Shown here: piece after piece, positions 28,059 to 56,270 of the stretch
Layout: each line of letters opens with the position of its first letter
Position numbering within the stretch: the first letter of the stretch is position 1
Source of the DNA: an uncultured Spirochaetota bacterium
GTDB taxonomy: Bacteria > Spirochaetota > Brevinematia > Brevinematales > JAOACQ01
Length of the DNA stretch: 64,000 nt
Reading direction: 5' to 3'
Assembly (NCBI GenBank): GCA_963768055.1
Contig: CAVYGN010000001.1
Span: 192,001-256,000 of the forward strand
Program-made: the position numbers and the translations under genes
The notes under the pieces: generated by a model
Told to the model about the DNA's origin: nothing
What the model saw: the letters and a program-made list of their open reading frames with translations, nothing else
Databases searched by the model: none

Positions 28059-28889
28059 TTAAGCTATTTTCTTGTGGTTTTTAACGTTTTTTCCGCTCAT
28101 TTCCCGCTGTTTGACGCTTTTCTGCAGAATCTCCATGAAATCACTGTACCTTGCAAAAGCCACAGCTTTTGGAGCCTTTATTACTGCGTCCGGCTGCTTT
28201 ATTTTTTTGTCGATCAATTCAAAGAGTTTCTCGGAATATTCATCATTGTATTTTTCGGGCTGCCAGGCGCCGCTCATCATTTCAATAAGTTTGCCGGCTA
28301 TATTCATTTCACTTTCAGTTATTTTATATTTTGAAGGGGGTTCCCCCGGGAATTCAAATTCGCTCAGTTCTTTGATCTCATTTTTGAACAATAATAAATC
28401 CAGGGCCAGCGCGTTTCCCACCGGCATGATAACGCTTAAATATTGCCTTTTACTTATGACAACTTTGGCAATTCCGGCTTTATGGGTTTTTTTCAAAATT
28501 TCCCTTAGAAGTACGTATCCCTTTTCATCCTTTTTTTCGCTCACCAGATAGTACGGTTTATGGTAGAAGAGCGTATTAATATCGCCGAGTTCCACGAACT
28601 CTTCAATGTTAATAATCTGATTGGCTTCAACGGCGGCCTTTTCAAAATCCTCATCGCTCATGATAACATATTTATCTTTTTCATATTCATAGCCCTTAAC
28701 GATGTCAGCCCAGGGAACCTCTTCGCCTGTTTCTTCATTGACCCTCAGGTTTTTAACCCGCTTATTATTTTTCCTGTCAATGAAATGAAAACTTGGACCG
28801 GCATTCGATTCGTTTATCGCAGTAAAAAGAGTGACGGGTATACTGACAAGCCCGAAAGTGATATAGCCTTTCCAGATTGGATGTGTCAT
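28059..28889 (-). CDS. ku: NHEJ Ku protein
   Basis: IWKGYITFGLVSIPV, IVKGYEY and KPYYL motifs; adjacent to ligD. Confidence 0.95.
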   Translation of the reverse strand: MTHPIWKGYITFGLVSIPVTLFTAINESNAGPSFHFIDRKNNKRVKNLRVNEETGEEVPWADIVKGYEYEKDKYVIMSDEDFEKAAVEANQIINIEEFVELGDINTLFYHKPYYLVSEKKDEKGYVLLREILKKTHKAGIAKVVISKRQYLSVIMPVGNALALDLLLFKNEIKELSEFEFPGEPPSKYKITESEMNIAGKLIEMMSGAWQPEKYNDEYSEKLFELIDKKIKQPDAVIKAPKAVAFARYSDFMEILQKSVKQREMSGKNVKNHKKIA

Positions 28890-29020
28890 GACGAGCCTCC
28901 TTTTAAAGCTAATTAAATAAGCTGTATTAGTCAATTCGAAGGGGGCTTATTGAATTCGGCAGGGCTGTTCTGCAATAATGCAAGCATAATAATTAAAATA
29001 CAAAAAAGCGCTTCATGGTA

Positions 29021-29049
29021 TTGACAATCAAAAATCTTTGTGATAAAAT
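29021..29049 (+). promoter_or_regulatory. sigma70 promoter (extended -10) of the RiPP operon
   Basis: TTGACA-17 nt-TAAAAT with TGn before the -10. Confidence 0.7.
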
Positions 29050-29151
29050 AACTTTACCTTAATAAATCAATCTTTAATGGCTTGTTATTTAATACTCTGA
29101 AAAAGTTAACCTGTTAAAATAAGATGATTTCAAAAGAGAAAAGGACTGCAT

Positions 29152-29418
29152 GTGAGTTATCAAATTGCGAAGAATATCTCGTATAGGGCTCTTGACGATA
29201 GTGTCGTCGTTTTAAACCTTAAAAGCGGTTATTATTATATCCTCAATACAACCTCAAGCTGTATATGGGACTCTCTTTTCGCAAAAAAGATGGATATTGC
29301 AGGTACGCTTGATAACCTTGCCGGTTTATATTCTGATATTAAACGGGAAACCCTGGAAAAGGATGTGAGTGAGGAAATTAATTACTGGATTAAAGAAAAA
29401 CTGATTTTAGCCTCATAA
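29152..29418 (+). CDS. PqqD-family RiPP recognition element (RRE)
   Basis: 88 aa; VVLNLKSGYYYILNTTSSCIW...LEKDV...WIKEKLI pattern of PqqD/lasso B1. Confidence 0.88.
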   Translation: MSYQIAKNISYRALDDSVVVLNLKSGYYYILNTTSSCIWDSLFAKKMDIAGTLDNLAGLYSDIKRETLEKDVSEEINYWIKEKLILAS

Positions 29419-29445
29419 AACAAATTCTGTTAAAGGGGGATACAT

Positions 29446-29595
29446 ATGCAGAAAACCGAAGAAAAAGCCCTGAAAACTTTGTCTTATGTTAAGCCGAAGA
29501 CAAAGAAGCACAAACCCGTCGACATAGTTAAGGGATCGGGTTCGTTATATTATTACAGTCTTTATTACACTTACTACTACTACTATTATTATTGA
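29446..29595 (+). CDS. Putative RiPP precursor peptide, 49 aa, poly-Tyr core
   Basis: AAGGGGG RBS, ATG 29446, TGA 29593-29595; MQKTEEKALKTLSYVKPKTKKHKPVDIVKGSGSLYYYSLYYTYYYYYYY; lies between the RRE and the first radical SAM gene. Confidence 0.88.
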   Translation: MQKTEEKALKTLSYVKPKTKKHKPVDIVKGSGSLYYYSLYYTYYYYYYY

Positions 29596-29625
29596 TCTTT
29601 TTCTTTCCGCCTAGTAACTGAGCAT

Positions 29626-31035
29626 ATGAACTTGCATATGATCGATACCATCCTTAAAAATGAGAGAGGAGGGTCTTCGTTCTTCAATGTGGCTCTGATA
29701 GAGCTCCTTGGCGGAATTTCAGGCGATCCGTATAATAGTAAGGGTTGGGATTGTTTTTTAACGAATTTGCTTAGGGGAAAAATTCGCCCCGATTCAAGAG
29801 AAGTGAGGCGGTTTTTCCCCTTTTTATCAGTTAACGTAACCCCCATTCATGGAGATGTTTCGGACAGTCATGAGATAGATAGTTATGCTTACCTTTATGA
29901 GCGTGAAAGCCTGTTCTTAAAGAAGCTTGAAGGATTTCTTATCGGTAACAAATCCGAAATAAAAGAATACTCCAAATCTCTCGGTTCGATTTTTATTCTC
30001 AGGGATGAAATTCGCGGAATATTGAGCCGGATAATTGATAATGACAAACTTTCTGTCTTTTTTAGGGATAAGGGGGCTATAAAGGGCAAAAAACAGATAA
30101 CCTTTGTGCCTACGTTCAGATGTCCGATGAAGTGTTCATATTGTGTGAATAAGGATATTACCTTTAAGGATATGAGTTACAGACATTTTACCTCAGCACT
30201 GAGGTGGCTTGACAATAATGGATGCGATATCGTGAGTTTCAGCGGGGGTGAACCGACCTCGCATGAACGTTTCAGCGAAATGATATTATCGTTATCCGAA
30301 AAGTACGAGATACATTTTGCGACAAACCTCATGTTTGGGCCCGGCGTAAGGAATGTGTTGTATAATGAAAGCGTTACCTCGCTTACCGTTCATATGCCGG
30401 GTCCGGGGGAACAATCGAGGGAACAGAGGGAGCTTTTCATCGATAATCTCAGGGCTTTTAAATTACAGAAAAAGAAAATGAGGTTCAGGTATAATATATC
30501 GAGGTTCGAGGATGAAAAAACCTGGGAACCTCTTTTAACATTTGTTAAAAGCATGGGGCATAATATAATCAATTTCGCCCTTACGGTGCCAGGGCGCAGC
30601 CGGACAAATGAATTTGTAAACACGGGGGAGCTGAATAAAATGGGAGGAGTCGCGAAAAATTTCATAGAATACTCCGGAATAAGAAATGTGAAGGTAAATA
30701 TTTCAAAGCCTATACCTCCATGCTGCATTTCAGACGAGAAAGACCCCATAGATATTTATCCGACGATTTGCAATATATATAAGGAGGATTACACTATAAA
30801 TACCACCATCCTTCCGGATTTAAGCGTATCGCCATGCTTTGCTGTAATGAAAAAGTTCAAAATGCTGACTGATTATAAAGACTGGGACGGTATCAGGAAA
30901 GATGTAAAACCTTATGTCACAAGTCTTATTCAAAAGCCGCTGCTTGACAAATGCGGGAAGTGTTACCTGTTTATGAGGGGAATTTGCATGGGCGGATGCC
31001 TCGGCTATAAAACAGACGGCGGGTATGATGCTTGA
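29626..31035 (+). CDS. Radical SAM/SPASM-type maturase with N-terminal extension
   Basis: CPMKCSYC, GGEPT, C-terminal CGKCYLFMRGICMGGC. Confidence 0.88.
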   Translation: MNLHMIDTILKNERGGSSFFNVALIELLGGISGDPYNSKGWDCFLTNLLRGKIRPDSREVRRFFPFLSVNVTPIHGDVSDSHEIDSYAYLYERESLFLKKLEGFLIGNKSEIKEYSKSLGSIFILRDEIRGILSRIIDNDKLSVFFRDKGAIKGKKQITFVPTFRCPMKCSYCVNKDITFKDMSYRHFTSALRWLDNNGCDIVSFSGGEPTSHERFSEMILSLSEKYEIHFATNLMFGPGVRNVLYNESVTSLTVHMPGPGEQSREQRELFIDNLRAFKLQKKKMRFRYNISRFEDEKTWEPLLTFVKSMGHNIINFALTVPGRSRTNEFVNTGELNKMGGVAKNFIEYSGIRNVKVNISKPIPPCCISDEKDPIDIYPTICNIYKEDYTINTTILPDLSVSPCFAVMKKFKMLTDYKDWDGIRKDVKPYVTSLIQKPLLDKCGKCYLFMRGICMGGCLGYKTDGGYDA

Positions 31036-32002
31036 CATTGGCGACATATTCAGGACATTTGCCGGGCGTGTTCAGAAACTCAAAAATTTATTATTTTTTG
31101 CACCAAGCTCGATCATCATAGAGCCGACCAATGCATGCAATCTGTCATGCAGGATTTGCGCCGCCTCTGAAATGCTCGTAAGGAATGACTCCGGCAGGGG
31201 ATTTATGGATTATAAACTCTTTGAGGAAATATTAAAAAAAATAAAAAGGCCCGATCAAAAAATACATCTGTATTTCAGGGGGGAACCGCTTCTTCATCCG
31301 GAAATAATCTCTTTTATCGCTGAAAGCTCCCGGCATGGTTTTTTTACCACCATTTCGACAAATTCGCTTTTGATGAATGAAGAAATGTGTGAAAGGCTTA
31401 TATCCTCGGGCCTGGACAGGCTTCAGATAAATTATGACAATATCCTGGAAGAGGATTACCCGATGATCCGGGGCATCGATGAAGCGGACACTGTCCTGAG
31501 GAACATAATGATGATCCAGGAGATGAAAACTAAACTGCATAGCGAGAAGCCTGAACTCATTATTAAGGCTGTAAACCCGGGGCATAAACCGGGCATGATA
31601 AGAAAGTACATGGAATTTCTTAAACTTAAAGGGATAAAAGGCAAAGCATGCATTACCGGCTATTTTGTCTGGCCCGGAACTTTGCCCCTCGATGAATTTG
31701 AAATAAACTGGCTGCCCGCGCCGAGGGTCTGCCCCATTTTTAACCAGGGAGCGGCGGTCACTTTCGATGGCAGGGTCCTGGCCTGCAGCTATGATTACAT
31801 GGAGGCCAGCTTTATCGGGAATATCCTGGATTTTAAATCTTTAAACAGCGTTTACAGTGATCCGGGCTATAAAAATTTCAGGAAAAAGATATTATTAAAG
31901 AAATACAATGAGCTTGCCCCATGTAAAAGCTGTTTAATGCCTATGACCCCTATAGCATATAAGGAATTCGAACTGGGAGGCTTAGATAAACCGGATGCCT
32001 AA
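31025..32002 (+). CDS. Radical SAM protein with SPASM/Twitch-type C-terminus
   Basis: CNLSCRIC, GEPLLHP, CPIF...DGRVLAC...IGNI...CKSC. Confidence 0.9.
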   Translation: MMLDIGDIFRTFAGRVQKLKNLLFFAPSSIIIEPTNACNLSCRICAASEMLVRNDSGRGFMDYKLFEEILKKIKRPDQKIHLYFRGEPLLHPEIISFIAESSRHGFFTTISTNSLLMNEEMCERLISSGLDRLQINYDNILEEDYPMIRGIDEADTVLRNIMMIQEMKTKLHSEKPELIIKAVNPGHKPGMIRKYMEFLKLKGIKGKACITGYFVWPGTLPLDEFEINWLPAPRVCPIFNQGAAVTFDGRVLACSYDYMEASFIGNILDFKSLNSVYSDPGYKNFRKKILLKKYNELAPCKSCLMPMTPIAYKEFELGGLDKPDA

Positions 32003-32948
32003 TTTATTTATAACGAACGTATGCAACCTTGACTGCAATTACTGTTTTGCCAAAGGGATGCTGGGTGAGAAGGGAGTGAATGAGTTCTCGCTGGATGAAA
32101 TTAAAACCGCGGCTTCTTTCGTCAGATCCTCAGGCAAGGGCGAGAATAAAAAAAATAATATTATTTCCATTCTCGGCGGAGAACCGACCCTTCATTCGAA
32201 ATTCAGGGATATTATCGATTATCTGACCGGTAATGGATTTATTGTCAAGCTTTTTACCAACGGCACTTTTCCTGCGGCGATTTCTGATTACCTGAAAAGT
32301 CTTAAGCCCGGCCTTTTATATATTATACTTAATATGAACCGCCGGGAAAATTATTCTGATGTGAAGTGGAACAACCTTGAGCGTAACCTGCGTACATTGA
32401 ATTCTATGATTACCCTGGGGATGACTATTTATGAGAAGAAATTCGATTACAGGACCATCCTTCAGTATATCGAAACATATGATTTGAGGAAAGAGATAAG
32501 GCTTGGTATTTCCCTGCCCATTGTCAACGGAATAAATGAATTCGTCAGGTTTGATGATGTAAGGGAAATCGGCGGACGGATTGTCGAATTCAGCGGGGAA
32601 GCCTTTAAAAAGGGCATAATCGTCGGCTTTGACTGCGGATATGTCATGTGCATGTTCACAAGGAAGGAGCTCGGCATATTGCAGTCGAATAATGCGAATC
32701 TGAATTTTCTGTGCGACGGGGCGATCGATATCGGGAAGAACGGGCGTGTATGGAGGTGTTTCCCGTTATACAGCATCTATAATACCAATATCGGGAAATT
32801 TGATTCGGTAAGATCGCTCAAAGAATATTACAACTCGGCTCTGCCTGCGAAAGTAAAGGGGATATCCGGGAATTGCTCAGACTGCGATTATTTTAAAAGG
32901 CGTATTTGCTCCGGAGGATGCTATGGATTTGAATTTATACAGCAATGA
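31995..32948 (+). CDS. Radical SAM/SPASM maturase
   Basis: CNLDCNYC, GGEPTLH, FDCGYVMC, CDGAIDI...RCFP, CSDC...CSGGC. Confidence 0.9.
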   Translation: MPNLFITNVCNLDCNYCFAKGMLGEKGVNEFSLDEIKTAASFVRSSGKGENKKNNIISILGGEPTLHSKFRDIIDYLTGNGFIVKLFTNGTFPAAISDYLKSLKPGLLYIILNMNRRENYSDVKWNNLERNLRTLNSMITLGMTIYEKKFDYRTILQYIETYDLRKEIRLGISLPIVNGINEFVRFDDVREIGGRIVEFSGEAFKKGIIVGFDCGYVMCMFTRKELGILQSNNANLNFLCDGAIDIGKNGRVWRCFPLYSIYNTNIGKFDSVRSLKEYYNSALPAKVKGISGNCSDCDYFKRRICSGGCYGFEFIQQ

Positions 32949-33705
32949 TATGACAGTCCGGCTGTCTGCAGGAAAACGGCGTAAAAGTTTCCCCGACAGA
33001 CTGCCCGAGCTCAAAGGAATCCTTGAAATAAACGGCATTAAAAATGTCATTATTACATGCGGCCGGGACATTCAATATAATATTGATATGATGTCGCTGG
33101 TCATGGACAAATTCAACGTGTGGCTTGAATGCGATCCCGGGGATTATCTCCTTTATAGCAAGGCCGTCAAAGAGATCTCGCCACGCAGGGCGACGGTCAT
33201 GCCGGGATTCAGGCTTGATGGCGAAGGGATCTCCGGCTTCAGGCTGTTCATGAAGAACACTGACTTTGACATGGAATTGTCGGTGTTCATAAAGACCGAT
33301 AAAAAGAATAATGAGGACGGTAAAACGGTTTTAAGGGAAATGATGTTAATTGCGGGAGAGAGGCCTGTAACTTTCTATTGGGATTGCGGGCTGTTATTCT
33401 GCGATTTCAATGATGAGGAGCTGCTGGGATATTTTATTGAAAAGGGGAGTATGATGAGGTTTTACTGCGCGCCTGTGATGAATATAGACACAGGGTTTAA
33501 AATGAGTTTCTGCCCTTCCCTTAAATTGCGCGGCATGGATATTTTGAAGAACAGTCTTTTTATGGAGAAATCCGGCAAAGCACTGAAAAAGCTGGATTCG
33601 TACTGGAACTTCGGGATATTCGGAAAATGTTCTTCATGTCCTAATTTTCTTAAAGTCTGCTCCGGCGGCTGTAAAGCGGCAGTTAAAGAGAGTTTTCAAA
33701 ACTAA
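32923..33705 (+). CDS. Degenerate radical SAM paralog retaining SPASM cysteines
   Basis: No CxxxCxxC or GGE; WDCGLLFC, YCAP...FCP and CSSC...CSGGC align with the neighbouring enzymes. Confidence 0.75.
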   Translation: MDLNLYSNDMTVRLSAGKRRKSFPDRLPELKGILEINGIKNVIITCGRDIQYNIDMMSLVMDKFNVWLECDPGDYLLYSKAVKEISPRRATVMPGFRLDGEGISGFRLFMKNTDFDMELSVFIKTDKKNNEDGKTVLREMMLIAGERPVTFYWDCGLLFCDFNDEELLGYFIEKGSMMRFYCAPVMNIDTGFKMSFCPSLKLRGMDILKNSLFMEKSGKALKKLDSYWNFGIFGKCSSCPNFLKVCSGGCKAAVKESFQN

Positions 33706-33724
33706 TTATCACAAGGCGGTAAAT

Positions 33725-34684
33725 ATGCCAAATCTTATGATTACCAATTATTGCAATCTTGCATGCCCTTATTGTTTCGGCATTGAGCAGATGAGCCCGA
33801 ACTGCTCCCCGCAATTTATGACGCGCGATACATACTTGGATCTTCTCGGATGGATGAAAACATCGGAGCTCGATTATTTTCATCTTATGGGCGGCGAGCC
33901 TACGCTCCACGAGGATTTTCTCTGGATGCTGGAGAAGGCTTCGGAAAAGGGTTTCAAAGTGGATGTGTTTTCAAACGGAATAACAGATTTTTCTGATGAT
34001 GAGATCAAAATGATAAAGGAAAAATCCCGATTCTGGATCGTAAATGTAAACGATCCGAAAAACTACAGCGCGGATAAGGTCGCAAGGCTTGAGAAATTGC
34101 TTAAGGGCCTGAACGACAGTGCATCCATCACCTTTAATATAACGGATGAAGATTATGATCCTTCCTATGTAATAGATTATATAAACAATTTCAAGCTGAG
34201 GAGGGATATAAAGCTGGGTATCGCCCTTCCGACACTAAACCAGGAAAATAAGTTTGCATCAACCGAGGATTTTGCCGGATTGTCCAGAACAGTTGTCGAA
34301 TTGTCCTACAGGATGAAAAAAGAAAAAATAATGGGCGAGTTCGAATGCGGCGTCCCGCACTGTTTTTTCAATAATAGGCAGAGGACAATTATAAAAAAGA
34401 ATAACTTTGCCAGTTTTTCCCAGTGCTGTTCCATGCTCGATATCCTTCCCGATGGAAATGCCATATATTGTCTTCCCCTTGCCAAACTACTGAAGGAACA
34501 TTATTCCAGATTCAAAACCTACCTTGAATTATGGACCTATTTCCAGGATTATTACAGGCCTTATCGAAGCGCAGGGTATAAAAAGGAATGCCTGACCTGC
34601 AAGTGGAAGTGGAGCTGCAATGGAAGCTGCCTTTCACGGATAATGCCTTATTATATCGGGGCAGGTGATGAAGCAAAGCTTTAA
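33725..34684 (+). CDS. Radical SAM/SPASM maturase
   Basis: CNLACPYC, GGEPTLH, FECGVPHC, CCSMLDI...YCLP, CLTC...CNGSC; paralog of 31995-32948. Confidence 0.9.
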   Translation: MPNLMITNYCNLACPYCFGIEQMSPNCSPQFMTRDTYLDLLGWMKTSELDYFHLMGGEPTLHEDFLWMLEKASEKGFKVDVFSNGITDFSDDEIKMIKEKSRFWIVNVNDPKNYSADKVARLEKLLKGLNDSASITFNITDEDYDPSYVIDYINNFKLRRDIKLGIALPTLNQENKFASTEDFAGLSRTVVELSYRMKKEKIMGEFECGVPHCFFNNRQRTIIKKNNFASFSQCCSMLDILPDGNAIYCLPLAKLLKEHYSRFKTYLELWTYFQDYYRPYRSAGYKKECLTCKWKWSCNGSCLSRIMPYYIGAGDEAKL

Positions 34685-36419
34685 TGCGGTCTTATTTATC
34701 AAAAGCATAATGAAGTTCCTCTCCCCGTACATCAGAAGATACGGGAATCTAATAATAATCGGCGCGGCTATTTCATGCACCATGGCGCTTGTTAACTACT
34801 TCAACTTAAGGATCATTAAAAACGTATTTGACGAGAAATTATACAACAGCGGGTTATTAACAATCGGCAGGTCTTTATCAATGGTGCTGGGAGCTTTTCT
34901 TATGTACTACGGATTAAACTATTTCTTAACAAACATGAATAACAACATAATGCTTTCGATTAACCGAGATATAATCAGGGATTTCTATATGAGAATCTGC
35001 AGTTTTTCAATGATCTTGATGAACGAATTTTCCCCGGGCCGGCTTATGACGTTATTATTGAATGATATAGTCCAGATTACTCCTTTCGTCAATCTTATAT
35101 TCATCGAGCTGGTTAAAAGTTCATTGATCTCTGCTGTAATACTTGTATATCTTTTCAGCATATCCTGGGCTTCGGCTATAATACCCCTTGTTATGATTAT
35201 GGTTTTCCTTTTAATAAACAGGTATTTCAATTCGCGGATGCGAAAGATGAAGCCGGCGATCCAGAAAACCCTTGAAATGTTCAATAATAAGCTTCTTGAC
35301 CATTTCCAGGGAATTAAGATCCTCAAGGTATACGACCTCGACGATTATGAAAAGGGAAGGTTTTCAGAATTAAACCAGACGGTTACAAGCCAGAACCGCG
35401 GTATTCTTAAGATGGAGAATTTAAAGAAGAACACCGCCGAAATCCTTGCCGTTCTTTTCATATGCGCCGCCGCCTTCACCGGATTTATGCTTGTCAGGGA
35501 GAATATTGTCACGGCGGGGATTGTTGCGGCTGTTTTATTCGCCTGTTTTATCCTGAATAATGAACTCAAGACCATGTTTGAAATATTTTCACGGGTTTCC
35601 CTTATGTCCGTTCATCTGGAAAGGATTGAAAAGGCTTTTAAAATATCCGGAGAGAGCCCCGGCTATTCAGGCAAAGAGGGGTTAAAGACCATACTTAATG
35701 ATCCGGTAACGTCCATCTGCTTTGAGAATGTGGATTTTAAGTACTACTCTAACTATATCCTCAAATCCGTGAACTGTGTTTTTAATACCGGGGCGGTAAT
35801 AGGGATAACAGGCGAATCCGGCTTTGGCAAATCTACAATGCTGAATCTGATGCTCGGACTTATAGCCCCGGGCGAGGGGGCAATAAAGATAAACGGCATG
35901 CCCCTTGAAAGTCTCGAGGTTAAAAATTATTTGAAACACATATCTTATCTTTCGCAGAGGCCGTTTTTATTCCAGGGCTCTTTTAAGGATAATATCGCTT
36001 TCGGCGAGCGGGAAGTCGACATTGAAAAGATGGTCAGGGCTGCAAAATCCGCGAACATTCACAAGTTTATCACAGCTACCCCCATGGGTTATGATACTGT
36101 GATTTCCGAGGGAGGACTTTCAATATCCGAAGGGGAGAAAAAAAGGGTTGAAGTCGCCAGGGCCATATATAAGGATTCTTCAGTTATTGTATTTGACGAA
36201 CCTACGGAAAGCCTTGATCTTAATAATAAGTTTGCCATCGTCGACATGATCAAATCCCTCAGGGAAAAGATCATCGTCGTGGTCAGCCATGATCTTTATA
36301 CCCTTGAAAGGTGCGACAGCTGGCTAATGATAACCCAGGATAAGCGGGTCAAGGAGATCAATGCTTTCGAAAAGCTTTATGAGGAAATAATGGGCGGGAA
36401 TAAACCCTATGAGTCATAA
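34668..36419 (+). CDS. ABC exporter (fused permease-ATPase, no C39 peptidase domain)
   Basis: 6 TM helices; GESGFGKS, divergent signature ISEGEKKR, FDEPT. Confidence 0.9.
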   Translation: MKQSFNAVLFIKSIMKFLSPYIRRYGNLIIIGAAISCTMALVNYFNLRIIKNVFDEKLYNSGLLTIGRSLSMVLGAFLMYYGLNYFLTNMNNNIMLSINRDIIRDFYMRICSFSMILMNEFSPGRLMTLLLNDIVQITPFVNLIFIELVKSSLISAVILVYLFSISWASAIIPLVMIMVFLLINRYFNSRMRKMKPAIQKTLEMFNNKLLDHFQGIKILKVYDLDDYEKGRFSELNQTVTSQNRGILKMENLKKNTAEILAVLFICAAAFTGFMLVRENIVTAGIVAAVLFACFILNNELKTMFEIFSRVSLMSVHLERIEKAFKISGESPGYSGKEGLKTILNDPVTSICFENVDFKYYSNYILKSVNCVFNTGAVIGITGESGFGKSTMLNLMLGLIAPGEGAIKINGMPLESLEVKNYLKHISYLSQRPFLFQGSFKDNIAFGEREVDIEKMVRAAKSANIHKFITATPMGYDTVISEGGLSISEGEKKRVEVARAIYKDSSVIVFDEPTESLDLNNKFAIVDMIKSLREKIIVVVSHDLYTLERCDSWLMITQDKRVKEINAFEKLYEEIMGGNKPYES

Positions 36420-36903
36420 TAACGACGCCCGGCCCGGTTTTTTTAGTTCCTATTTGCTGGGACTGAGGATCGCGGGCATAAAAAAGTTTTTCAAGGGAAA
36501 TATAACTGCCATCGTACGCTCGCTTAGATTGATAGGCAGAGGGCATTTTATCAATAAAAGCGATTACATTGAGTTAAAAAAACTTCTATCGAGGGTCTAC
36601 ATATTTTCGCCCTGGATGTGGAAACAGAAGTGCCTCTACATCTCGCTTATGGAATATTATTTCTGCCCGGGCGCAGTCCTGAACATCGGGTTTGATATTT
36701 CGGAAATGAAAAATGAAGGACATTGCTGGATTACTATGGACGGGCTTATCCCTGATAAAGACCAGGAGAATCTGTGGTTTTCCAATCATTACAGGATATA
36801 TTTTTCAAGAAAAGGCGATGTGATATACTGGCTGCCGGCAAAGTACAGGGAAACTGAAAAGGTTTCAAAATTATTCGGTTTTATGAAGGGGGTAAGGCAA
36901 TGA
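36409..36903 (+). CDS. Lasso-peptide B2-like (transglutaminase-fold) leader peptidase
   Basis: KCLYISL...LNIG...GHCWITMDG, matching the CL..S / HAW catalytic pattern. Confidence 0.72.
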   Translation: MSHNNDARPGFFSSYLLGLRIAGIKKFFKGNITAIVRSLRLIGRGHFINKSDYIELKKLLSRVYIFSPWMWKQKCLYISLMEYYFCPGAVLNIGFDISEMKNEGHCWITMDGLIPDKDQENLWFSNHYRIYFSRKGDVIYWLPAKYRETEKVSKLFGFMKGVRQ

Positions 36904-38345
36904 AGAGGGTCGCTCTTATATCCCTCAATGTGAGGGGCTATTATTCGACAGCCCTGGACCTTATATCCGGCTATGCCCTGGGGGACAGCGAGATAAGAGA
37001 AAACTACTCCTTTCGTATTTATAATGTTTCCATGAAAATTGTTAAAAAGGTCCGGCTTTATAAGCCGGGGTTCGCCGATTTTTTTATCGGCTTATTTAAA
37101 GACTGCCTGCTGTTTAATTTTAAACAAGCCGATATACGGATTAAACAAGCGCTCGAATATAACGGATTCTATGTCAGGGTTTCTGAAGCCATGTCGAGGC
37201 TGGCTGCTTCAATAAAGATCCTCGCTGGTTTTCCTGATATTGTAGGGTTTTCATGCAGCGTATGGAATATCCGGGAATCTCTAAGAACAGCGGCTTTGAT
37301 AAAAAAGTTCAGACCCGGGGTGATTCTGGTCTTCGGCGGGCAGGAGGTGACCAATTCGGGGCCTGCTTTTGCCGCTGCTTATCCCTTTATCGATTATGTC
37401 GTCGATGGGGAAGGCGAACAGACCTTCAAAGAAATTCTTCTTTCGCTGCTTAAACAAAAGCAGGCTCAAACAGCTCCCATACCCGGATGCGCGGTGAATG
37501 GCGCCCCGTTTATTAAAAGAGAGCCGATAGCCGATCTTGGCGGTGTGCCGACCCCTTACCTGTCGCTGATAAAGAACAAGAAAATGATGAAGGTTGTCCT
37601 GGGATCGAAACTCGGATGCATGATAGAGTCTTCAAGAGGCTGCCCGTTCAAATGCACCTTCTGCTTCGAATCCGACCGTTTTAATTCTGTGCGCTACAGG
37701 CCTTTAAAAAATATCACTGATGAATTAATGCTATTATCATCTCTTGGCGCTTATGGTTTTCATATTCTCGACCCGACCCTCTGCGGACTGAATAAGGGCA
37801 GGACCAGGGAGATAGCTGACATAATCCGCAGCATAGAGGGCCATGAAAATTTTAAAATTTCAGTAGAGGTATACCTCGATTACCTGATCGAGGGGATGAT
37901 CGGCGATCTCGATGTGTTTTATTCTTTTGATGCCGGGCTCCAGACTGTAAATCCCCATGTTTTAAAAAAGATAAGGCGGGTATGGAACCAGGAGCGGTTT
38001 ACACGAGGGTTTTCACTGCTCAAGCAGTTAAAAGGAAAGATTATTGCGGTGTACCTGATTTTCGGCCTGCCTGGGGAATCCTATTTCAGCTTCATAAAAA
38101 GCGTCATTTACGTTTTAAGCCTTGAGCCCGATTTATTTTATGTTAACAAGTTAAGCCTCCTCTCCGGTACGTCCCTGAGGAGGGACGCTCCGGCCTTAAA
38201 ACTGGATTACTCGGAGTCTCCTCCTTATCATATCAAATCCACCCCGGATTTTTCCGAAGAGGAGATAGGGCTTTGCGATATATTCACCAAGAGCATGATG
38301 TGGGAATTCAACACATACAATTATAGGAGAAGTATTAATGCTTGA
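36900..38345 (+). CDS. Cobalamin-dependent radical SAM protein
   Basis: DIVGFSCSVWN, VFGGQE, DGEGE, SRGCPFKCTFC, IFGLPGE. Confidence 0.92.
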   Translation: MKRVALISLNVRGYYSTALDLISGYALGDSEIRENYSFRIYNVSMKIVKKVRLYKPGFADFFIGLFKDCLLFNFKQADIRIKQALEYNGFYVRVSEAMSRLAASIKILAGFPDIVGFSCSVWNIRESLRTAALIKKFRPGVILVFGGQEVTNSGPAFAAAYPFIDYVVDGEGEQTFKEILLSLLKQKQAQTAPIPGCAVNGAPFIKREPIADLGGVPTPYLSLIKNKKMMKVVLGSKLGCMIESSRGCPFKCTFCFESDRFNSVRYRPLKNITDELMLLSSLGAYGFHILDPTLCGLNKGRTREIADIIRSIEGHENFKISVEVYLDYLIEGMIGDLDVFYSFDAGLQTVNPHVLKKIRRVWNQERFTRGFSLLKQLKGKIIAVYLIFGLPGESYFSFIKSVIYVLSLEPDLFYVNKLSLLSGTSLRRDAPALKLDYSESPPYHIKSTPDFSEEEIGLCDIFTKSMMWEFNTYNYRRSINA

Positions 38346-39246
38346 TTATCATAATACTTGCGTCTGCGAGGGAGCGCCATGGTACGGCAATATACCTGTT
38401 ATTAATGAGGAGGGGTGTTCAGCCCTTCCGAAAGAATCGGTGATAAAGGATATAAGGGGCGGAAGAGAAAAAGGAAATATAGCACTTACAGGGGGCGAAC
38501 CGCTCATGCATCCGGATATCATGGATTTTATTTTTGAATCCGCCTGCCTGGGTTACCGGAGAATAAAGCTGATGACTGGCGGCAGTAGATTAGCCGATAC
38601 AGGTTTTCTGAAATCGCTGATCTACGCCGGCGTTTACTTGTTTGAAATCCCGGCATGCAGCCCGGATGACCTGACAAAAAAAGATCCTGTCAGATCGGTT
38701 AGAAAATCCTCGGAAGGGCTCAGGAACATCAGGAAAATAGCAGAACTTGACACATATTTTTACAACATATATGTCGCCCTCGTTTTGCCGGTTTGTTCCC
38801 TGAACTATGGAATTCTTGAAGAAATACTTGGTGCAGTGATAGAAGACGTCAAAGTCGACAGGGTTATATTCTGCTGGGGAGAGCCGGGTTTCGATATCCG
38901 GAAAGCGGGTTTATCCCTGGGCGGGGCGATCGGGAAATGCGTTAAAAACAAGATATGGGCATTTACGCGGGGGATCCCCCTTTGCGCCATTCCCGGAAAT
39001 CATATATACCATATGGAAGAGCTGTATGTTTCCGGCGCTCCGGATACGGGTTTCGACCTTTCAGGGCCATGCAGGGAATGCTGGGCTAGAAGTCTGTGCC
39101 GGAGATTACCCGGCCCGCTTGCTTCCTTCAAATATGCGTGGAATCCGAGGGCTGTCGAAGCTGAAAAATATACTCCTTATGTAAAGGACATCCTGGAAAA
39201 GGGATACGTTTTTGATGCTGAAAATGAAAAACTTTACAGCTCATAA
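38338..39246 (+). CDS. Degenerate radical SAM-like protein
   Basis: LTGGEPLMHP, GIPLC and CREC...LC present; N-terminal motif reduced to CVC. Confidence 0.65.
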   Translation: MLDYHNTCVCEGAPWYGNIPVINEEGCSALPKESVIKDIRGGREKGNIALTGGEPLMHPDIMDFIFESACLGYRRIKLMTGGSRLADTGFLKSLIYAGVYLFEIPACSPDDLTKKDPVRSVRKSSEGLRNIRKIAELDTYFYNIYVALVLPVCSLNYGILEEILGAVIEDVKVDRVIFCWGEPGFDIRKAGLSLGGAIGKCVKNKIWAFTRGIPLCAIPGNHIYHMEELYVSGAPDTGFDLSGPCRECWARSLCRRLPGPLASFKYAWNPRAVEAEKYTPYVKDILEKGYVFDAENEKLYSS

Positions 39247-40384
39247 AGGCTTGCCGGAAAACCGCGCTATCGTCCTGACAGCCCTTGACTGTCATGATAA
39301 TCCTTATCTCGATGATAAAATAAGAGAAGCGGTAAAAGGGATCAAAGACTGGAATTATGTGGCCTTCCATCTTGTCCACCATGGCACGGCCGGCATGTTT
39401 GCAAGGCATGGGGCACGGCTGGGCCTGGAAAATAATATAGACGAAAATTTCCTCCGGGAAATCAGGCTTCGCGACAAGCTTTTCAGGTTCAGAAACGCCA
39501 GGTATTATAAAGAAATGTCCAGGATATCCTCCCTTTTCGAAAAAAACAGGGTATCAATGACTTTTGTAAAGGGCGCACAATTAGTAGCCGCAGGGCTCAT
39601 AGAGCCGGAAAACAGGTTCATGAACGATATCGACTGCATTGTGCCCATTGAAGAAGCGGGCAAGGCCAGGGAACTGCTCCTTGGCGGCGGATATGCCGAG
39701 CAGGGAGAAAATGATTTCGACTGCCGGTATGACCTTAAAGGGGAGATGAGGTTTATTAACATAGAAGACAGGGAAATTTCTGTAGATATAAACATCCTTC
39801 TCAATAAAAACCGGGAACTCCTGCATTGCTACCCTTTAAAGACAGAGGATATGCTCTCCCGTTTAACATGGAAGGCCGGAAAAGGCCTTTCATACAATGA
39901 AATTGAAAACGAATTCCATTTTATATATTGCCTCTACCACCATGCGGCGCTGAATTATTTCTGGAGGCTGAATTGGCTTAACGACCTTTATATCATGTTC
40001 AAAAAAGCTAATATCGAAAGATTATTTTCATATGCATCCAGGTACAAGCTTGGAAGGGTCCTGGACCTTTTCCTCGATATTCTTTCGGCGCATTATGATA
40101 TAAATACTCCCCGGAAATCAAAGGGGATCAATATAGGGCTCAGGAGGCTTTATCTCGATCCTTCATGTTCATTTGCGGACCTTGAAACGATCGACAGGAA
40201 CGAATCGGTCCGCATATTCATGATAGACAGAGTACTCGACCGCATAATATTTTTAATCATGAAGGTCTTTTCTTCTCCCGAAACCCTGAGGATTTATTAT
40301 AATTTGAACCCTTCTTCCGGCATATTTTATGTTTACGGAGTACATGTTAAGAATTTATTTAAAAGAATAATAACTAAAAGGTGA
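39215..40384 (+). CDS. Nucleotidyltransferase (lasso/RiPP-cluster-associated type)
   Basis: VKGA...RFMNDIDC motif, HHA...RLNWLNDL. Confidence 0.82.
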   Translation: MLKMKNFTAHKGLPENRAIVLTALDCHDNPYLDDKIREAVKGIKDWNYVAFHLVHHGTAGMFARHGARLGLENNIDENFLREIRLRDKLFRFRNARYYKEMSRISSLFEKNRVSMTFVKGAQLVAAGLIEPENRFMNDIDCIVPIEEAGKARELLLGGGYAEQGENDFDCRYDLKGEMRFINIEDREISVDINILLNKNRELLHCYPLKTEDMLSRLTWKAGKGLSYNEIENEFHFIYCLYHHAALNYFWRLNWLNDLYIMFKKANIERLFSYASRYKLGRVLDLFLDILSAHYDINTPRKSKGINIGLRRLYLDPSCSFADLETIDRNESVRIFMIDRVLDRIIFLIMKVFSSPETLRIYYNLNPSSGIFYVYGVHVKNLFKRIITKR

Positions 40385-41415
40385 ATTTGATTATGGAAGA
40401 CCGCGCTGGCAGGTTTTTTTCTGGAAGGCTGAAATGCACCCTCGCCCTGAATATTCATGGGACTCTCCTCCATTTATTATGCGACGACCGCAAGCTTCTC
40501 CAGCTTATAAAAAGGCATCTGAAGACCTACTGGGTAGGGCTTGAAAAAGGAAAAAAACCGGACATGGCCTGTTCCATTATTACCCTTCCCCGTAATGACT
40601 TCGATACAGTCCTTGGAAATTATAAAAGAATGAAAAAAATCAAAAACGACGAGGACCTTGATATCAGGTACGGTAAGGCCGGGCCGGAATATGTTTTTGG
40701 AGTAAATGGGGAATGCATCATCCTGTTCAATGGATCAGATGACGACTGCTGCTGTATATTGCTTAAAACAGACGATGGCGGAATACTTGAACCTATGATA
40801 TTTATGGATATCCTTCTGATAGAATGGCTTAAAAACAGAGGGTTTTATTTTATTCATGCCTCGGGCGTCTGCTCCGGAGGCAGGGCTTTTCTTTTTATCG
40901 GGCCGTCGGGAAGCGGCAAATCTACGGCGTCCCTTATAGGCGCTTACAGCGGGCTGGATTTTCTCGGCGACGACCTGATCATTTTAAAAAAATCAGAAAG
41001 CGGTTTTTACGCTTATTCCTATAATGTTAACGTGAAAGTCAACAGGGACATTATGGAGAAAATGGATTATTTTTCCCGGCCTATTTTCCGCGGGAAAAAA
41101 TATGATACGCTTCAGTTCAGCCTTAAAAAACATTTCAGGGTGGATATTTGCAAAAAAGCGCCCGTAGAAAAAATTTATTTTATAAAAAAGAATAACCCTT
41201 TATGCGTCCTGAGCACGGTGGAGGCATACCCTTTGCTGTTAAAGTCAGTCTGCTTTCCGGGGCGGGACAGGTTTAAGCTGGAGCATTTTCAATTATTTCA
41301 GGATTTTTTAAGGTCTGTCAAGTCCTTTACTGTCGGGCATGAAGATATTAATAATAATTTTGCCGCGCTGGTAACCCCTGATATATCCTCTATGCGGCTT
41401 CGCGGAAAGCTTTAA
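40381..41415 (+). CDS. HPr-kinase-like P-loop kinase
   Basis: IHASGV, GPSGSGKST, FLGDD. Confidence 0.82.
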   Translation: MNLIMEDRAGRFFSGRLKCTLALNIHGTLLHLLCDDRKLLQLIKRHLKTYWVGLEKGKKPDMACSIITLPRNDFDTVLGNYKRMKKIKNDEDLDIRYGKAGPEYVFGVNGECIILFNGSDDDCCCILLKTDDGGILEPMIFMDILLIEWLKNRGFYFIHASGVCSGGRAFLFIGPSGSGKSTASLIGAYSGLDFLGDDLIILKKSESGFYAYSYNVNVKVNRDIMEKMDYFSRPIFRGKKYDTLQFSLKKHFRVDICKKAPVEKIYFIKKNNPLCVLSTVEAYPLLLKSVCFPGRDRFKLEHFQLFQDFLRSVKSFTVGHEDINNNFAALVTPDISSMRLRGKL

Positions 41416-42086
41416 ATCTTTTTTGAATGCAGAATATCCTGATCTTCAAACATCATATCAATTTCTATATTATAAGATAAGATTATATTTTCAGTATTTT
41501 CAACAGATTCGGGAATTTTATCAAATATCTTATTGAATGCATCGACCGCTTCGGGGGAAAACTGGTCACCTGAGTGGTTATTTATCTCTTTATAAGCATA
41601 TTCATAAGAGAGCTTCTTTCGATAAGTCCTGTTCGAAGTAATTGCATCAAAACTATCAGCGACGGCAATAATACGTGATTGAAAAGGTATGTCTTCACCG
41701 GAAAGATTTGAGGGATAGCCCAGCCCGTCAAATCTTTCATGATGGTATAAAACAATTTCCGCTATTTCATTGAATATTGGAAGATGTTTTAGGATGGTGT
41801 TACCTATCGCCGAGTGTTTTTGTATAATGAATAATTCATTTTTATCAAGAGCACCGGGTTTGTTCAAAATAAAATCAGGGATACCTATCTTTCCTATATC
41901 ATGCATATGGGCGGCATAATGAATGATTTCAATTTGATTATCGGGCAAATTCATTTCTTCCGCAATCAGCAACGATACGGCTGCAACCCTTTCAGAATGT
42001 GAATAAGTATATGGATCGCGGAAATTCAGAATATTATTGACAATATCTATTAATTCATCTACAGAAAGATTGTGATCTTTTATCAT
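41412..42086 (-). CDS. HD-GYP cyclic-di-GMP phosphodiesterase
   Basis: HDIGK, HHERFDGLGYP, AVADSFDA. Confidence 0.92.
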   Translation of the reverse strand: MIKDHNLSVDELIDIVNNILNFRDPYTYSHSERVAAVSLLIAEEMNLPDNQIEIIHYAAHMHDIGKIGIPDFILNKPGALDKNELFIIQKHSAIGNTILKHLPIFNEIAEIVLYHHERFDGLGYPSNLSGEDIPFQSRIIAVADSFDAITSNRTYRKKLSYEYAYKEINNHSGDQFSPEAVDAFNKIFDKIPESVENTENIILSYNIEIDMMFEDQDILHSKKI

Positions 42087-42312
42087 TAAATATCTTCCCC
42101 TTTGATTTACTACAATATACCGGGACAGTAAACTTTGAAAACGCCGGTGCATGATTATAACATGGAGTTTAATGTTTTGCGGTTTTATTATACTTCATAA
42201 TTATTTTGTCTTATATTCGGTCGAAATATCGGCCAATATGAATTTACCTCTTGACTCGATATTAAAAATAAGATACAATCAGTCATTAAAGAATATTAAT
42301 AGCGGTATCAAA

Positions 42313-42663: not shown

Positions 42664-43356
42664 TTATTTATATATCTTCCTGATAGAAGCGACAATTATC
42701 CCCAGGATGTATTTTTTATCATCTTTCCCAAAGTTTTTCATATTAATTATATCATCATTTTCAAGCACGGTATTTTGAGATTCCGATAATGAATGAAGAA
42801 ACTTTTCAATCATATTCTGGTTGACCTGTATGGAATAAAAGGAATCTCCGGTACTGTTGAATAGCTGGCAAATTTCAATTTTGTTTCCACTGCGCATGGC
42901 ATAATATCTTTTATCTACAACCCGGCTGAAACCCCGGCGAATGATATGTGTGATATTTTCCGCCTCTTTAAATAGAAAATAGATATTGTCGATTTCTTCC
43001 TGGGTAAGGTTTGATATTTTGTCATCAAAGATATCATTATCGATGATATCCAGCGAAACCTTTTCATATTTGTAAGTGTTGTTCCAATCGTCAAAAGCAA
43101 AAAGCAACTCATCTTTTGAAAAATCAGAGAAGATCCTGAGTGAAATCAAAGGGCTCCTGGCAGGCAGGAAATATTCGACTGGTTGTTTAAAAACTATGGA
43201 AAGTTTTTCAATATCTTCATATTGGGGCATTCTCTCATTTTGCTCCCATTTTGAAACAAGATTGGACGATACCTTCAATTGATCGGCTAATTCTATTTGC
43301 GTCCAGTTTTCTTTTTTTCTGAACATTCTTATTTTATCGCCGATAGTCATAAACAT
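42664..43356 (-). CDS. XRE-family HTH transcriptional regulator
   Basis: IGDKIRMFRKKENWTQIELAD...VSKWEQNERMP. Confidence 0.88.
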   Translation of the reverse strand: MFMTIGDKIRMFRKKENWTQIELADQLKVSSNLVSKWEQNERMPQYEDIEKLSIVFKQPVEYFLPARSPLISLRIFSDFSKDELLFAFDDWNNTYKYEKVSLDIIDNDIFDDKISNLTQEEIDNIYFLFKEAENITHIIRRGFSRVVDKRYYAMRSGNKIEICQLFNSTGDSFYSIQVNQNMIEKFLHSLSESQNTVLENDDIINMKNFGKDDKKYILGIIVASIRKIYK

Positions 43357-43923: not shown

Positions 43924-44451
43924 ATGGAAGATACTACTGATTACCAGAATATCAAAAAACATCAGGATTTTGAATATTTTTTCCGTTTTATGAAAACGGA
44001 AGATAATTTTGAAGAATTATGGAGGATGAAATCAAGTGCGCGTGAAAGCTTAAAAGAATGGCTGATGTCTACTCACGCTGTCCCGAAAAAGGCTGAAGTA
44101 ATTTCAAATTCGGCAAGCGAACTTATTGAGAATTGTATTAAATATTCAATAATGAACGCCCACTCATTCGTATATATTCAGGTAATGGGAAAGACAGTCA
44201 CAATTGAGACGATGAATTCATCAAACCCCGAACAAAAAAGTAAGATCGCAGAATACATGCATTTCATAAATACTAATTCCAAGGACAATCCCACAAGATT
44301 ATATCTGGAAAAGATAGCAGAATCGGTCCATACAGGTAAAAGCCAGATCGGACTTCTCAAGATTCTGATGGAAACTAAAGGCACCCTGGAAATGGTTGAC
44401 CATCCGGGAGAGGAAAATATTGTTCACATCAGGGTCAGGATGAACGTCTGA
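43924..44451 (+). CDS. GHKL-like anti-sigma/SiaB-type kinase (slr1658-like)
   Basis: N-box ASELIENCIKYS and G-box SQIGLLKI. Confidence 0.65.
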   Translation: MEDTTDYQNIKKHQDFEYFFRFMKTEDNFEELWRMKSSARESLKEWLMSTHAVPKKAEVISNSASELIENCIKYSIMNAHSFVYIQVMGKTVTIETMNSSNPEQKSKIAEYMHFINTNSKDNPTRLYLEKIAESVHTGKSQIGLLKILMETKGTLEMVDHPGEENIVHIRVRMNV

Positions 44452-44476
44452 GTTCCGGCTTTAGGGGGATAAGATC

Positions 44477-44995
44477 TTGACTGATGATATCAGGTATAGG
44501 GAAACCAGAGATTTTGAATACTATTTTCGTTTTAAGAAACTCCCTGAAAACTTTGAGGAACTATGGAGAATGAAATCATCGGCCCGGGAAAGCCTCAAGG
44601 AATGGCTTGTTGCAGTTAAAGCCGGATTCAAAACGGCTGAAGTGATCGCGAATTCGGCCAGTGAACTTATAGAGAACTGCATTAAATATTCCGTTATAAA
44701 CACCTTTTCTTCTATTTATATCTCGGTCATGGACGGCTTTGTACGGATAGAAACAGTCAACACCGCGTCTGATAATAACAAAAAGGTGCTGACACAATTC
44801 ATAGAAATTATTAATTCTCAGAAGGAATCCCTTGCATCTCTATTTTTAAAAAAAATCATGGACTATGCAGAAAACATTACCAGTCAGATAGGCCTTATTA
44901 AGATAATGATGGAATCGAGGGGCGTTATCCGCCTTATCGACAATAGTAAAGAAAACGATATTGTTTGTCTCAGGTTTGAAATGAAAACAAATTAA
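44477..44995 (+). CDS. GHKL-like anti-sigma/SiaB-type kinase paralog
   Basis: Shares NFEELWRMKSSARESLKEWL and ASELIENCIKYS with the upstream gene; TTG start with AGGGGG RBS. Confidence 0.65.
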   Translation: MTDDIRYRETRDFEYYFRFKKLPENFEELWRMKSSARESLKEWLVAVKAGFKTAEVIANSASELIENCIKYSVINTFSSIYISVMDGFVRIETVNTASDNNKKVLTQFIEIINSQKESLASLFLKKIMDYAENITSQIGLIKIMMESRGVIRLIDNSKENDIVCLRFEMKTN

Positions 44996-45010
44996 AGGGG
45001 CCTTTTTAAT

Positions 45011-46237: not shown

Positions 46238-46238
46238 C

Positions 46239-47243: not shown

Positions 47244-47268
47244 AATTATTCAAGAGGTAGATAATTAT

Positions 47269-48339: not shown

Positions 48340-48347
48340 GGAATCTT

Positions 48348-53712: not shown

Positions 53713-53729
53713 GTATATTAAACGCTCCT

Positions 53730-53946: not shown

Positions 53947-54047
53947 TCAATCGAAGGTAAGGGTTTCCTGATCACGGAGTTTACGAACCCGTAGGTAATC
54001 CAGCCGTTGCCGCCGAAACCGTATTGTCGAATTTAGCCCCCAGGGGA
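53947..54047 (-). pseudogene. Collapsed remnant of a second C1 peptidase gene
   Basis: Encodes PLGAKFDNT joined to GWITYGFVNSVIR..LTFD*, matching the N- and C-terminal parts of 55351-56253. Confidence 0.75.
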
Positions 54048-56253: not shown

Positions 56254-56270
56254 AATAACCTCTAAATTTA

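Follow-up and report, generated by a model that had tools for sequence, protein, structure and literature searches.

A Tyrosine-Rich Peptide Encoded with Radical SAM Enzymes in an Uncultured Spirochaetota Bacterium: a Probable New RiPP Family with Lasso-Type Leader Handling

Here, we report the computational analysis of a 13-gene operon that encodes a tyrosine-rich peptide of 49 amino acids (aa) in the genome of an uncultured Spirochaetota bacterium (GTDB lineage Brevinematia; Brevinematales; JAOACQ01). The operon lies in a stretch of 64,000 nucleotides (GenBank assembly GCA_963768055.1, contig CAVYGN010000001.1, positions 192,001 to 256,000 of the forward strand), referred to as the window, and coordinates are those of the window unless another locus is named. 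It probably makes a peptide that is ribosomally synthesized, post-translationally modified (a RiPP), and exported, and probably represents a new family of radical S-adenosylmethionine (SAM) RiPPs with lasso-type leader handling. The precursor family and the enzyme combination are new; the module types are known. The pattern by which a RiPP cluster is recognized was found, namely, a leader that is conserved and a core that varies, beside a RiPP recognition element (RRE) and modifying enzymes, co-located in all four loci with gene context. A new RiPP class had been proposed in a model-generated first-pass annotation of this DNA, and the proposal gained computational support from an 11-member precursor family, from co-conservation of the enzymes, and from a structural model of the RRE with the leader. 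We infer a hybrid system, in which the genes for leader handling and hydroxyl decoration are those of phosphorylated lasso clusters and radical SAM enzymes of the SPASM and B12 types supply the core chemistry.

Shortly 5' of its ATG, the precursor gene (29446..29595, + strand) carries a strong Shine-Dalgarno site (AAGGGGGA). Its 49-aa product, which matched no Pfam or NCBIfam family and is encoded in single copy in the genome, combines a leader containing Y14-x-x-P17 with a Tyr-rich tail (12 Tyr among the 19 residues from 31 to 49). When 5.8 billion protein clusters were searched through a word index, two homologues were returned, and a five-sequence profile brought the family to 11 members (10 besides that of the window); the count is a minimum, because homologues without 5-residue words in common escape the search. 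One member (P0162) comes from a metagenome-assembled genome (MAG) of Prevotellaceae (protein accession MDR1543751.1; 22,688-bp contig), and five (P0004, P0005, P0160, P0161, and P0163) are on short contigs. The precursor profile matched none of 401 sampled Bacteroidales genomes, a weak negative from a sample without a positive control genome. One further match to the precursor pattern (L012) had no Tyr-rich frame and was judged to be a chance match.

The Tyr and Pro of Y-x-x-P are invariant in all 11 precursors, and nearly all carry the longer leader pattern Y-x-[KS]-P-x-[TM]-x-K-[HF] followed by G-S, after which the tails consist of Tyr, Ser, Thr, Leu, and Gly. Cores were defined by a fixed cut 17 residues after the invariant Tyr, the spacing given for the lasso motif YxxPxL in the available part of PMC10368454. 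So cut, the 11 cores contain 135 Tyr in 264 residues (51%), and the junction is G then S in 10 of the 11 precursors; cleavage of the window precursor would fall between G30 and S31, provided that the lasso −17 spacing rule applies. In a precursor from a Syntrophobacteraceae MAG (L021), the 17-residue spacing places Thr at −2, the canonical lasso leader position. Each core has 0 to 6 [ST]-L-Y units, and [ST]-L-Y-Y units occur. The window core (residues 31 to 49) contains neither acidic residues nor Cys; acidic residues are absent from 8 of the 11 cores, Cys is likewise absent from 8 (with one each in the other three), and 5 of the 11 precursors end in Tyr. Judged by sequence, the Tyr-rich open reading frame (ORF) is a real gene beyond chance, because 10 more homologues have the same leader and Tyr-rich tails.

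The operon (29152-41415, + strand) consists of 13 tightly packed ORFs, all on one strand, in the order PqqD-family RRE, 49-aa ORF, radical SAM enzymes rS1, rS2, and rS3, SPASM-only protein, rS4, ATP-binding cassette (ABC) exporter, B2-like protein, B12-binding radical SAM protein, degenerate radical SAM protein, NTP_transf_5 protein, and HprK-like protein. Of the 12 junctions, nine are overlaps (4 to 35 nt) and three are gaps (19 to 30 nt), figures that use longest-ORF starts, the true starts possibly lying further downstream. A sigma-70-like promoter match in front of the operon (29021..29049, + strand; TTGACA, 17 nt, TAAAAT, with TG before the −10) agrees with the consensus at 11 of 12 positions and is the best + strand site within 28800-42300; it is a consensus match only. 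Domain calls were made with Pfam and NCBIfam, and all statements on NCBIfam cover the best 25 matches per protein. Pfam Radical_SAM was matched in rS1, rS2, rS3, rS4, and the B12-binding and degenerate proteins, and Pfam SPASM in rS2 only. The first-pass annotation had described a 13-gene + strand operon with this order and these coordinates, mostly overlapping genes, and a consensus sigma70 promoter; ORF calls, translations, and both domain databases agree with it, as do the junction count and the promoter match.

The gene directly before the precursor (29152..29418, + strand) encodes an 88-aa PqqD-family RRE, likely the leader-binding chaperone. Its match to PF05402 (E value, 1.5e-9) is above the cut-off, which places it among PqqD-family B1 RREs; matches to lasso_PqqD_Bac (2e-7) and to the lasso models NF033536 and NF033530 are below theirs. 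The modeled complex of PqqD and precursor scored 0.73 in all three runs (best of three controls, 0.01), a score that 116 of the 157 solved complexes and 2 of the 215 mismatched pairs in the benchmark attained. Across runs, at least 82% of contacts agreed, and the partner pLDDT (predicted local distance difference test) was at least 56. The modeled interface pairs PqqD residues 25-35 and 59-82 with precursor residues 11-25, the conserved leader, and precursor residues 27 and 39 are also touched. The model is supportive of docking of the RRE onto the conserved leader.

Gene context came from four loci, namely, the window and three loci from MAGs of differently named taxa. At the Elusimicrobiota locus (L093/L096), PqqD (53% identical to the window RRE) and a 56-aa precursor are on one strand, convergent with an operon of ten enzyme genes in window order at 28-60% identity (rS2, 41%; rS3, 60%; SPASM-only, 32%; rS4, 54%; ABC, 46%; B2, 33%; B12 radical SAM, 43%; degenerate radical SAM, 39%; NTP_transf_5, 38%; HprK-like, 28%). 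The Gammaproteobacteria locus (L011) has a precursor, an rS3-type radical SAM gene (31%), a gene for a hypothetical protein, an HprK-like gene, and an rS1-type radical SAM gene (27%; E value, 4e-38), together with genes for a GT9 glycosyltransferase, a PapB-like radical SAM protein, an outer-membrane efflux protein, and an NTP_transf_5 protein. At the Syntrophobacteraceae locus (L021), the precursor ends in four Tyr and is accompanied by a B2 homologue, PqqD, a formyltransferase, an HprK-like fusion protein of 669 aa, an rS3-type radical SAM enzyme (tblastn E value, 2e-43), GT9, and NTP_transf_5. Precursor, rS3-type radical SAM/SPASM, HprK-like, and NTP_transf_5 genes thus occur in four of four loci and PqqD and B2 in three, the remaining genes being modular; in two loci, the precursor follows directly after the RRE gene. 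Whether homologous clusters contain small Tyr-rich ORFs had been put forward in advance as a test of the RiPP assignment, and such ORFs are present beside the same enzymes in all three MAG loci.

The distribution of the cluster is sparse. The degenerate radical SAM protein had an ortholog-level match only in the window genome itself (G000; E value, 8e-214) among 401 sampled genomes of its own phylum, where the matches in four others were weak and generic, and only in G041 among 401 sampled Elusimicrobiota genomes. The N terminus of RpoB shares 44-50% identity with four named MAGs, which does not fix the taxonomic placement. Another Elusimicrobiota genome (G523) contains a different multi-radical-SAM locus, and a repeated cassette of radical SAM, polytopic membrane protein, and glycosyltransferase genes in the same genus as the window (L104; G001:C3:175000-194000) is unrelated to the Tyr cluster; both were set aside. 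Horizontal spread is suggested because the family is rare and patchy across differently named environmental lineages. Parts of window 29021-33000 are present in seven DNA sequencing runs from two studies with freshwater sediment and peat metagenome labels (largest word share, 0.47), and no RNA run was listed as containing the operon stretch.

Seven proteins of the operon are radical SAM-like. rS1 (29626..31035, + strand; 469 aa) is extended by 155 aa at the N terminus and has a Cys-rich SPASM-like motif at the C terminus; rS2 (31025..32002, + strand; 325 aa) matches Radical_SAM (6e-19) and SPASM (5e-7); and rS3 (31995..32948, + strand; 317 aa) and its paralog rS4 (33725..34684, + strand; 319 aa; 30% identity) have SPASM-type Cys motifs. 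The B12-binding protein (36900..38345, + strand) combines B12-binding and Radical_SAM domains and is of the class B, methyltransferase-like type; it matches the KedN5 subfamily (2.6e-27, below the cut-off), and its nearest solved structures are the methylases TokK and CysS. The remaining two are the 260-aa SPASM-only protein (32923..33705, + strand), which keeps the SPASM cysteines (TIGR04085 E value, 0.0035), and the 302-aa degenerate protein (38338..39246, + strand), which keeps a GGEP motif. A CxxCx5-6CxxxC motif ends rS1, rS3, rS4, and the 260-aa protein. In the translations, the CX3CX2C motif is intact in rS1, rS2, rS3, rS4, and the B12 radical SAM protein and absent from the other two, so that the seven-member radical SAM assembly line of the first-pass annotation stands as a count of radical SAM-like proteins but comprises five intact enzymes and two pseudo-enzymes. 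In BLAST comparisons, the closest relative of the SPASM-only protein was the C-terminal half of rS3, and that of the degenerate protein was rS2. The Elusimicrobiota orthologs of both (32% and 39% identity, respectively) are equally degenerate and keep the remaining motifs, which argues, at the sequence level, that the pseudo-enzymes are functional rather than decaying.

Matches of rS1-rS4, the B12 radical SAM protein, and the degenerate protein to named maturase families (PapB, DynA, WgkB, StsB, SkfB, GggB, CbpB, ScmE/F, GeoRSP, PqqE, and MftC) were all far below the cut-offs, and the best NCBIfam match of these six proteins was that of rS2 to W_rSAM_matur (105.5 bits versus a cut-off of 380). 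Besides the rS1-type gene of the Gammaproteobacteria locus, a single rS1 homologue was found (P0002; 51% identity); it and the precursor P0157 are reported from one source on contigs of equal length and probably share one 16,687-bp JGI contig. No ortholog-level match to rS1 was found in 40 close relatives, and scans of metagenome contigs with the rS1 alignment and with P0002 returned no relative. The N-terminal extension of rS1 had no similarity to PqqD (hhalign probability, 0.08), a weak comparison made with a two-sequence profile. A genome scan with rS2 returned only 26%-identity radical SAM proteins in unrelated contexts (L001 and L002), which were discarded. The rS3 family comprises 222 clusters at an E value of ≤1e-30. 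The solved structures nearest to rS3 are Tes, CteB, SuiB, SkfB, and anSME.

As an observation apart from the Tyr cluster, three loci from other phyla (L018 7630-8951, L022 7297-8951, and L025 7495-8999) have an rS3-type radical SAM/SPASM gene directly after an ORF of 100-160 aa with a twin-arginine-like N terminus, L022 having a PqqD-like ORF as well; they seem to represent a separate radical SAM system for protein modification, apparently one without a name.

Four further genes would serve leader removal, export, and hydroxyl decoration. The ABC exporter (34665..36419, + strand) is a fused permease and ATPase (ABC_membrane and ABC_tran) without a peptidase domain. The 164-aa lasso-B2-like (transglutaminase-like) putative Cys protease (36409..36903, + strand) matches NF033537 below the cut-off (E value, 1.1e-4; 22.5 bits versus 33). 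Its homologue at the Syntrophobacteraceae locus matches PF13471 above the cut-off, Cys75 and His105 are invariant in three of three sequences, and the structural model of the window protein was too poor for use (pLDDT, 44.6). The NTP_transf_5 protein (39212..40384, + strand) has a nucleotidyltransferase fold (PF14907; E value, 1.6e-27), and all its Atlas neighbors are PF14907; the only paper found on PF14907 was one on phosphonates, in a literature coverage that excludes subscription journals. Nucleotidyltransferase-fold enzymes also nucleotidylate Tyr hydroxyls (GlnE and GlnD). The HprK-like P-loop kinase (40381..41415, + strand) matches HprK_rel_B below the cut-off (E value, 6.6e-10; 38.6 bits versus 200), and the other model of the HprK-related kinase A/B pair (TIGR04352 and TIGR04355) scores 22.7 bits, against the same cut-off. 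The Walker A motif (G-x-S-G-x-G-K-x-T) and a DD pair are unchanged across all six HprK-like sequences, and the best Foldseek matches of its model (pLDDT, 63.6) are PEPCK and HprK/P, a predicted likeness at the superfamily level only. A PDB sequence search with the HprK-like, NTP_transf_5, and B2 proteins gave nothing useful. Judged from the compared sequences, the HprK-like and NTP_transf_5 proteins look like core parts rather than optional tailoring enzymes because they are present in all four context loci.

HprK-like genes with NTP_transf_5 or PqqD also stand beside other radical SAM/SPASM genes in Byssovorax and Pyrinomonadaceae MAGs (L051, L055, and L057), where no Tyr-rich ORF was seen and nothing scored above NCBIfam cut-offs. 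As far as gene content tells, the theme of HprK-like protein, nucleotidyltransferase, and radical SAM is wider than the Tyr-rich precursor family.

Several points weigh against a new RiPP family with lasso-type leader handling. Gene context is available for four loci only, the other seven precursors being on short or context-less contigs. The core varies in length from 8 to 39 residues, and its C terminus is unconserved (SG, HER, HYH, and LF). The RRE-leader score may mirror likeness to solved RRE-leader complexes, and it was obtained with our own shallow alignments. The B2 assignment is composed of a sub-threshold match, the Pfam match of a homologue, and conserved Cys and His residues; for the HprK-like protein, the matches fall far short of the cut-offs, the quality of the model is moderate, and the TM-scores (template modeling scores) are only 0.22-0.47. 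No ortholog of rS1 was found in the Elusimicrobiota genome (L093), and neither PqqD nor B2 was found at the Gammaproteobacteria locus with our own two-sequence hidden Markov models (HMMs); because of these absences, the enzyme set is plastic. Finally, most rS3-family loci (L013-L040, except L021) had no matches to our own HMMs for HprK, NTP_transf_5, PqqD, B2, or the precursor, so that membership in the rS3 family says nothing specific about Tyr chemistry.

One alternative is that the peptide, rather than being the product, serves as a sacrificial scaffold, from which crosslinked or decarboxylated Tyr units would be excised to give a small Tyr-derived cofactor or metabolite. In the pathways of pyrroloquinoline quinone (PQQ) and mycofactocin, a PqqD-type chaperone and a radical SAM/SPASM enzyme act on a Tyr-containing ribosomal peptide, and the window operon has all three of these elements. 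PqqE and the mycofactocin maturase are among the weak NCBIfam matches, the Tyr at the end of five precursors and the repeated [ST]-L-Y-Y units (which could be multiple cores) would suit such excision, and the GT9 glycosyltransferases of the Gammaproteobacteria and Syntrophobacteraceae loci recall mycofactocin. Yet the scores for PqqE (TIGR02109) and the mycofactocin maturase (TIGR03962) fall far short of the cut-offs; the window and the Elusimicrobiota locus have a dedicated ABC exporter, and the Gammaproteobacteria locus has an outer-membrane efflux protein. In addition, the single putative protease encoded is of the leader-peptidase type, and the core and C terminus of the family vary. We regard excision of a cofactor as unlikely.

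It is still harder to accept that the small ORF is not the substrate at all but a regulator or bystander, with the enzymes acting on another protein, a lipid, or a glycan. The best NCBIfam match of rS2 is to the non-RiPP maturase W_rSAM_matur (E value, 3e-30; 105.5 bits versus a cut-off of 380), rS2 resembles Tes-type lipid enzymes, relatives of the cluster carry GT9 genes, and the rS3 family mostly occurs without a precursor peptide. Against a bystander role, the peptide accompanies the enzymes in four of four context loci from differently named taxa and follows the RRE gene directly in two of them, and the RRE-leader model passes its controls; we consider this role very improbable.

Comparison with lasso clusters draws on the available parts of three papers. 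There, lasso kinases phosphorylate a precursor Ser, and B1 speeds phosphorylation and helps B2 (PMC9266682, PMC10368454, and PMC7533575); PsmN, a nucleotidyltransferase homologue, is required for hexose addition to phospho-Ser (PMC10368454 and PMC9266682); and Firmicutes lasso clusters typically include kinase, nucleotidyltransferase, and ABC genes (PMC7533575). The occurrence of kinase, nucleotidyltransferase, and B1/B2 genes in lasso clusters, cited as established in the first-pass annotation, is borne out by the same sources. The window operon shares with the paeninodin, pseudomycoidin, and Bsf clusters a split B1 (PqqD RRE) and putative B2 (Cys protease), a leader Y-x-x-P 17 residues from the inferred cut site, and HPr-kinase-like, nucleotidyltransferase-like, and ABC exporter genes. 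It differs in having five radical SAM enzymes in place of the cyclase, T or M at position six of the leader motif where lasso leaders have L, and lasso-model scores that are all below the cut-offs. No Asn_synthase domain was found in the 13 operon proteins, and no PF00733 match above the cut-off was found in the genome (94.75% complete). The window operon is not a lasso cluster, because these searches gave no cyclase in the operon or genome and an acidic acceptor residue is missing from the core. To a variant lasso cluster, in which B1 and B2 would cut the leader and an unrecognized enzyme would form the macrolactam, we give next to no credence, since the matches of PqqD and the 164-aa protein to lasso B1 and B2 models, the lasso-type Y-x-x-P leader (in the available part of PMC10368454), and the Firmicutes-type kinase, nucleotidyltransferase, and ABC genes are outweighed by the missing Asn_synthase, by sub-cut-off scores throughout, and by a core without Asp or Glu, as in 8 of the 11 cores.

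Other known RiPP types are also distinct from the window operon. It is not a thioether RiPP (sactipeptide or ranthipeptide), because the window core has no Cys. With the SPASM crosslinking RiPPs (streptide/SuiB, dynobactin/DynA, darobactin, and the cyclophane YhhB type), it has in common a small precursor, an RRE, and radical SAM/SPASM maturases; the rS3-family profile aligns over its full length with SuiB and anSME and over the core with CteB, SkfB, Tes, and MoaA, and rS4 matches the DynA model through its C-terminal part (E value, 1e-9, below the cut-off). It differs from them in NCBIfam scores (20-50 bits versus cut-offs of 340-650), in its core of Tyr-rich quasi-repeats, in its four paralogous SPASM enzymes and two pseudo-enzymes, and in having a kinase and a nucleotidyltransferase as core parts. 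Aminopyruvatide, in the part of its description available, likewise pairs a Tyr-Leu-Tyr motif (YLY in ApyA) with a B12 radical SAM enzyme (ApyD), and ApyD is among the matches of the B12 radical SAM protein; the score is 49.6 bits versus 750, and that pathway uses P450 crosslinks and an MNIO enzyme, neither of which is encoded by type in the window operon.

HprK-related kinase A/B, GeoRSP, and the radical SAM/SPASM proteins of the SynChlorMet cassette are systems that NCBIfam defines computationally. Their HprK-like P-loop protein with PqqD and radical SAM/SPASM is shared by the window operon, with similar sets in the Byssovorax and Pyrinomonadaceae MAGs, whereas the scores are far apart from the cut-offs (HprK_rel_B, 38.6 versus 200; GeoRSP_rSAM, 23.9 versus 400; ScmF, 32.2 versus 400 bits). 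No experimental paper on these systems was found, and no description of a Tyr-rich radical SAM precursor or of such a gene set was found in the full-text literature, in both cases within the same coverage as above. The earlier statement that the gene combination and precursor were not recognized from any characterized RiPP class accords with this. Assignment of the enzymes to a characterized pathway had been named in advance as a ground for refutation, and none of them maps to one, every NCBIfam match being far below its cut-off.

In the RiPP pathway favored here, the 49-aa precursor would be bound through its leader (residues ~11-25, with Y14-x-x-P17) by the PqqD-type RRE, which would hand it to the enzymes. 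Three or four SPASM-type radical SAM enzymes would then modify the Tyr/Ser/Thr/Leu core (~31-49), the likeliest products being C-C or C-O crosslinks at Tyr rings or beta-carbons in [ST]-L-Y-Y and T-Y-Y-Y units. The class B B12 radical SAM enzyme probably C-methylates, and the SPASM-only and CX3CX2C-less proteins are probably non-catalytic partners. The HprK-like kinase and NTP_transf_5 protein may carry out hydroxyl phosphorylation followed by nucleotidyl or glycosyl transfer, like PsmK and PsmN in pseudomycoidin. The B2-like Cys protease would cut off the leader, at G30/S31 if the lasso −17 rule holds, and the ABC transporter would export the product. Crosslinks, epimerization, methylation, and phosphorylation of the peptide are all conjecture at this stage. 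More tentatively, the lasso leader module (B1 RRE, B2, kinase, and nucleotidyltransferase) may have been uncoupled from its cyclase and recruited to a radical SAM line, which could turn the poly-Tyr core into a ladder of Tyr crosslinks (polycyclophane or polyether), C-methylated by the B12 enzyme and bearing phospho-, nucleotidyl-, or glycosyl-hydroxyls, with the two pseudo-radical SAM proteins as obligate non-catalytic partners; this fuller scheme is doubtful as a whole.

If the proposed pathway is true, the operon would provide a RiPP scaffold made almost wholly of tyrosine, with several new radical SAM reactions to assign, and the first clear case of a lasso leader recognition and cleavage module without a lasso cyclase. 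It is a natural test of the role of conserved pseudo-radical SAM partners and bears on the role of the widespread pair of HprK-like and NTP_transf_5 proteins outside lasso clusters. The leader motif (Y-x-[KS]-P-x-[TM]-x-K-[HF]…G-S) enables class-specific genome mining.

The operon is flanked upstream by Ku and LigD genes and downstream by an HD-domain gene, all on the − strand. Just downstream, a signaling operon (43924-49967, + strand) encodes DUF6272, a 172-aa ORF without assignment, a methyl-accepting chemotaxis protein, HD-domain and GGDEF proteins, and a PAS-SpoIIE-TPR protein, and is preceded by an HTH_3 regulator (42664-43356, − strand). Elsewhere in the window, a response regulator with GAF and HD domains lies between two 7TM-PAS histidine kinases of 610 and 613 aa, which are paralogs (7424-12354, − strand). 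At 51995-57563 (− strand), two 430-aa ORFs without a Pfam match flank a papain-family C1 peptidase (55351-56253) and adjoin an ABC-2 permease/ATPase pair; the GC content of this region (0.50-0.52) is above that of the rest of the window.

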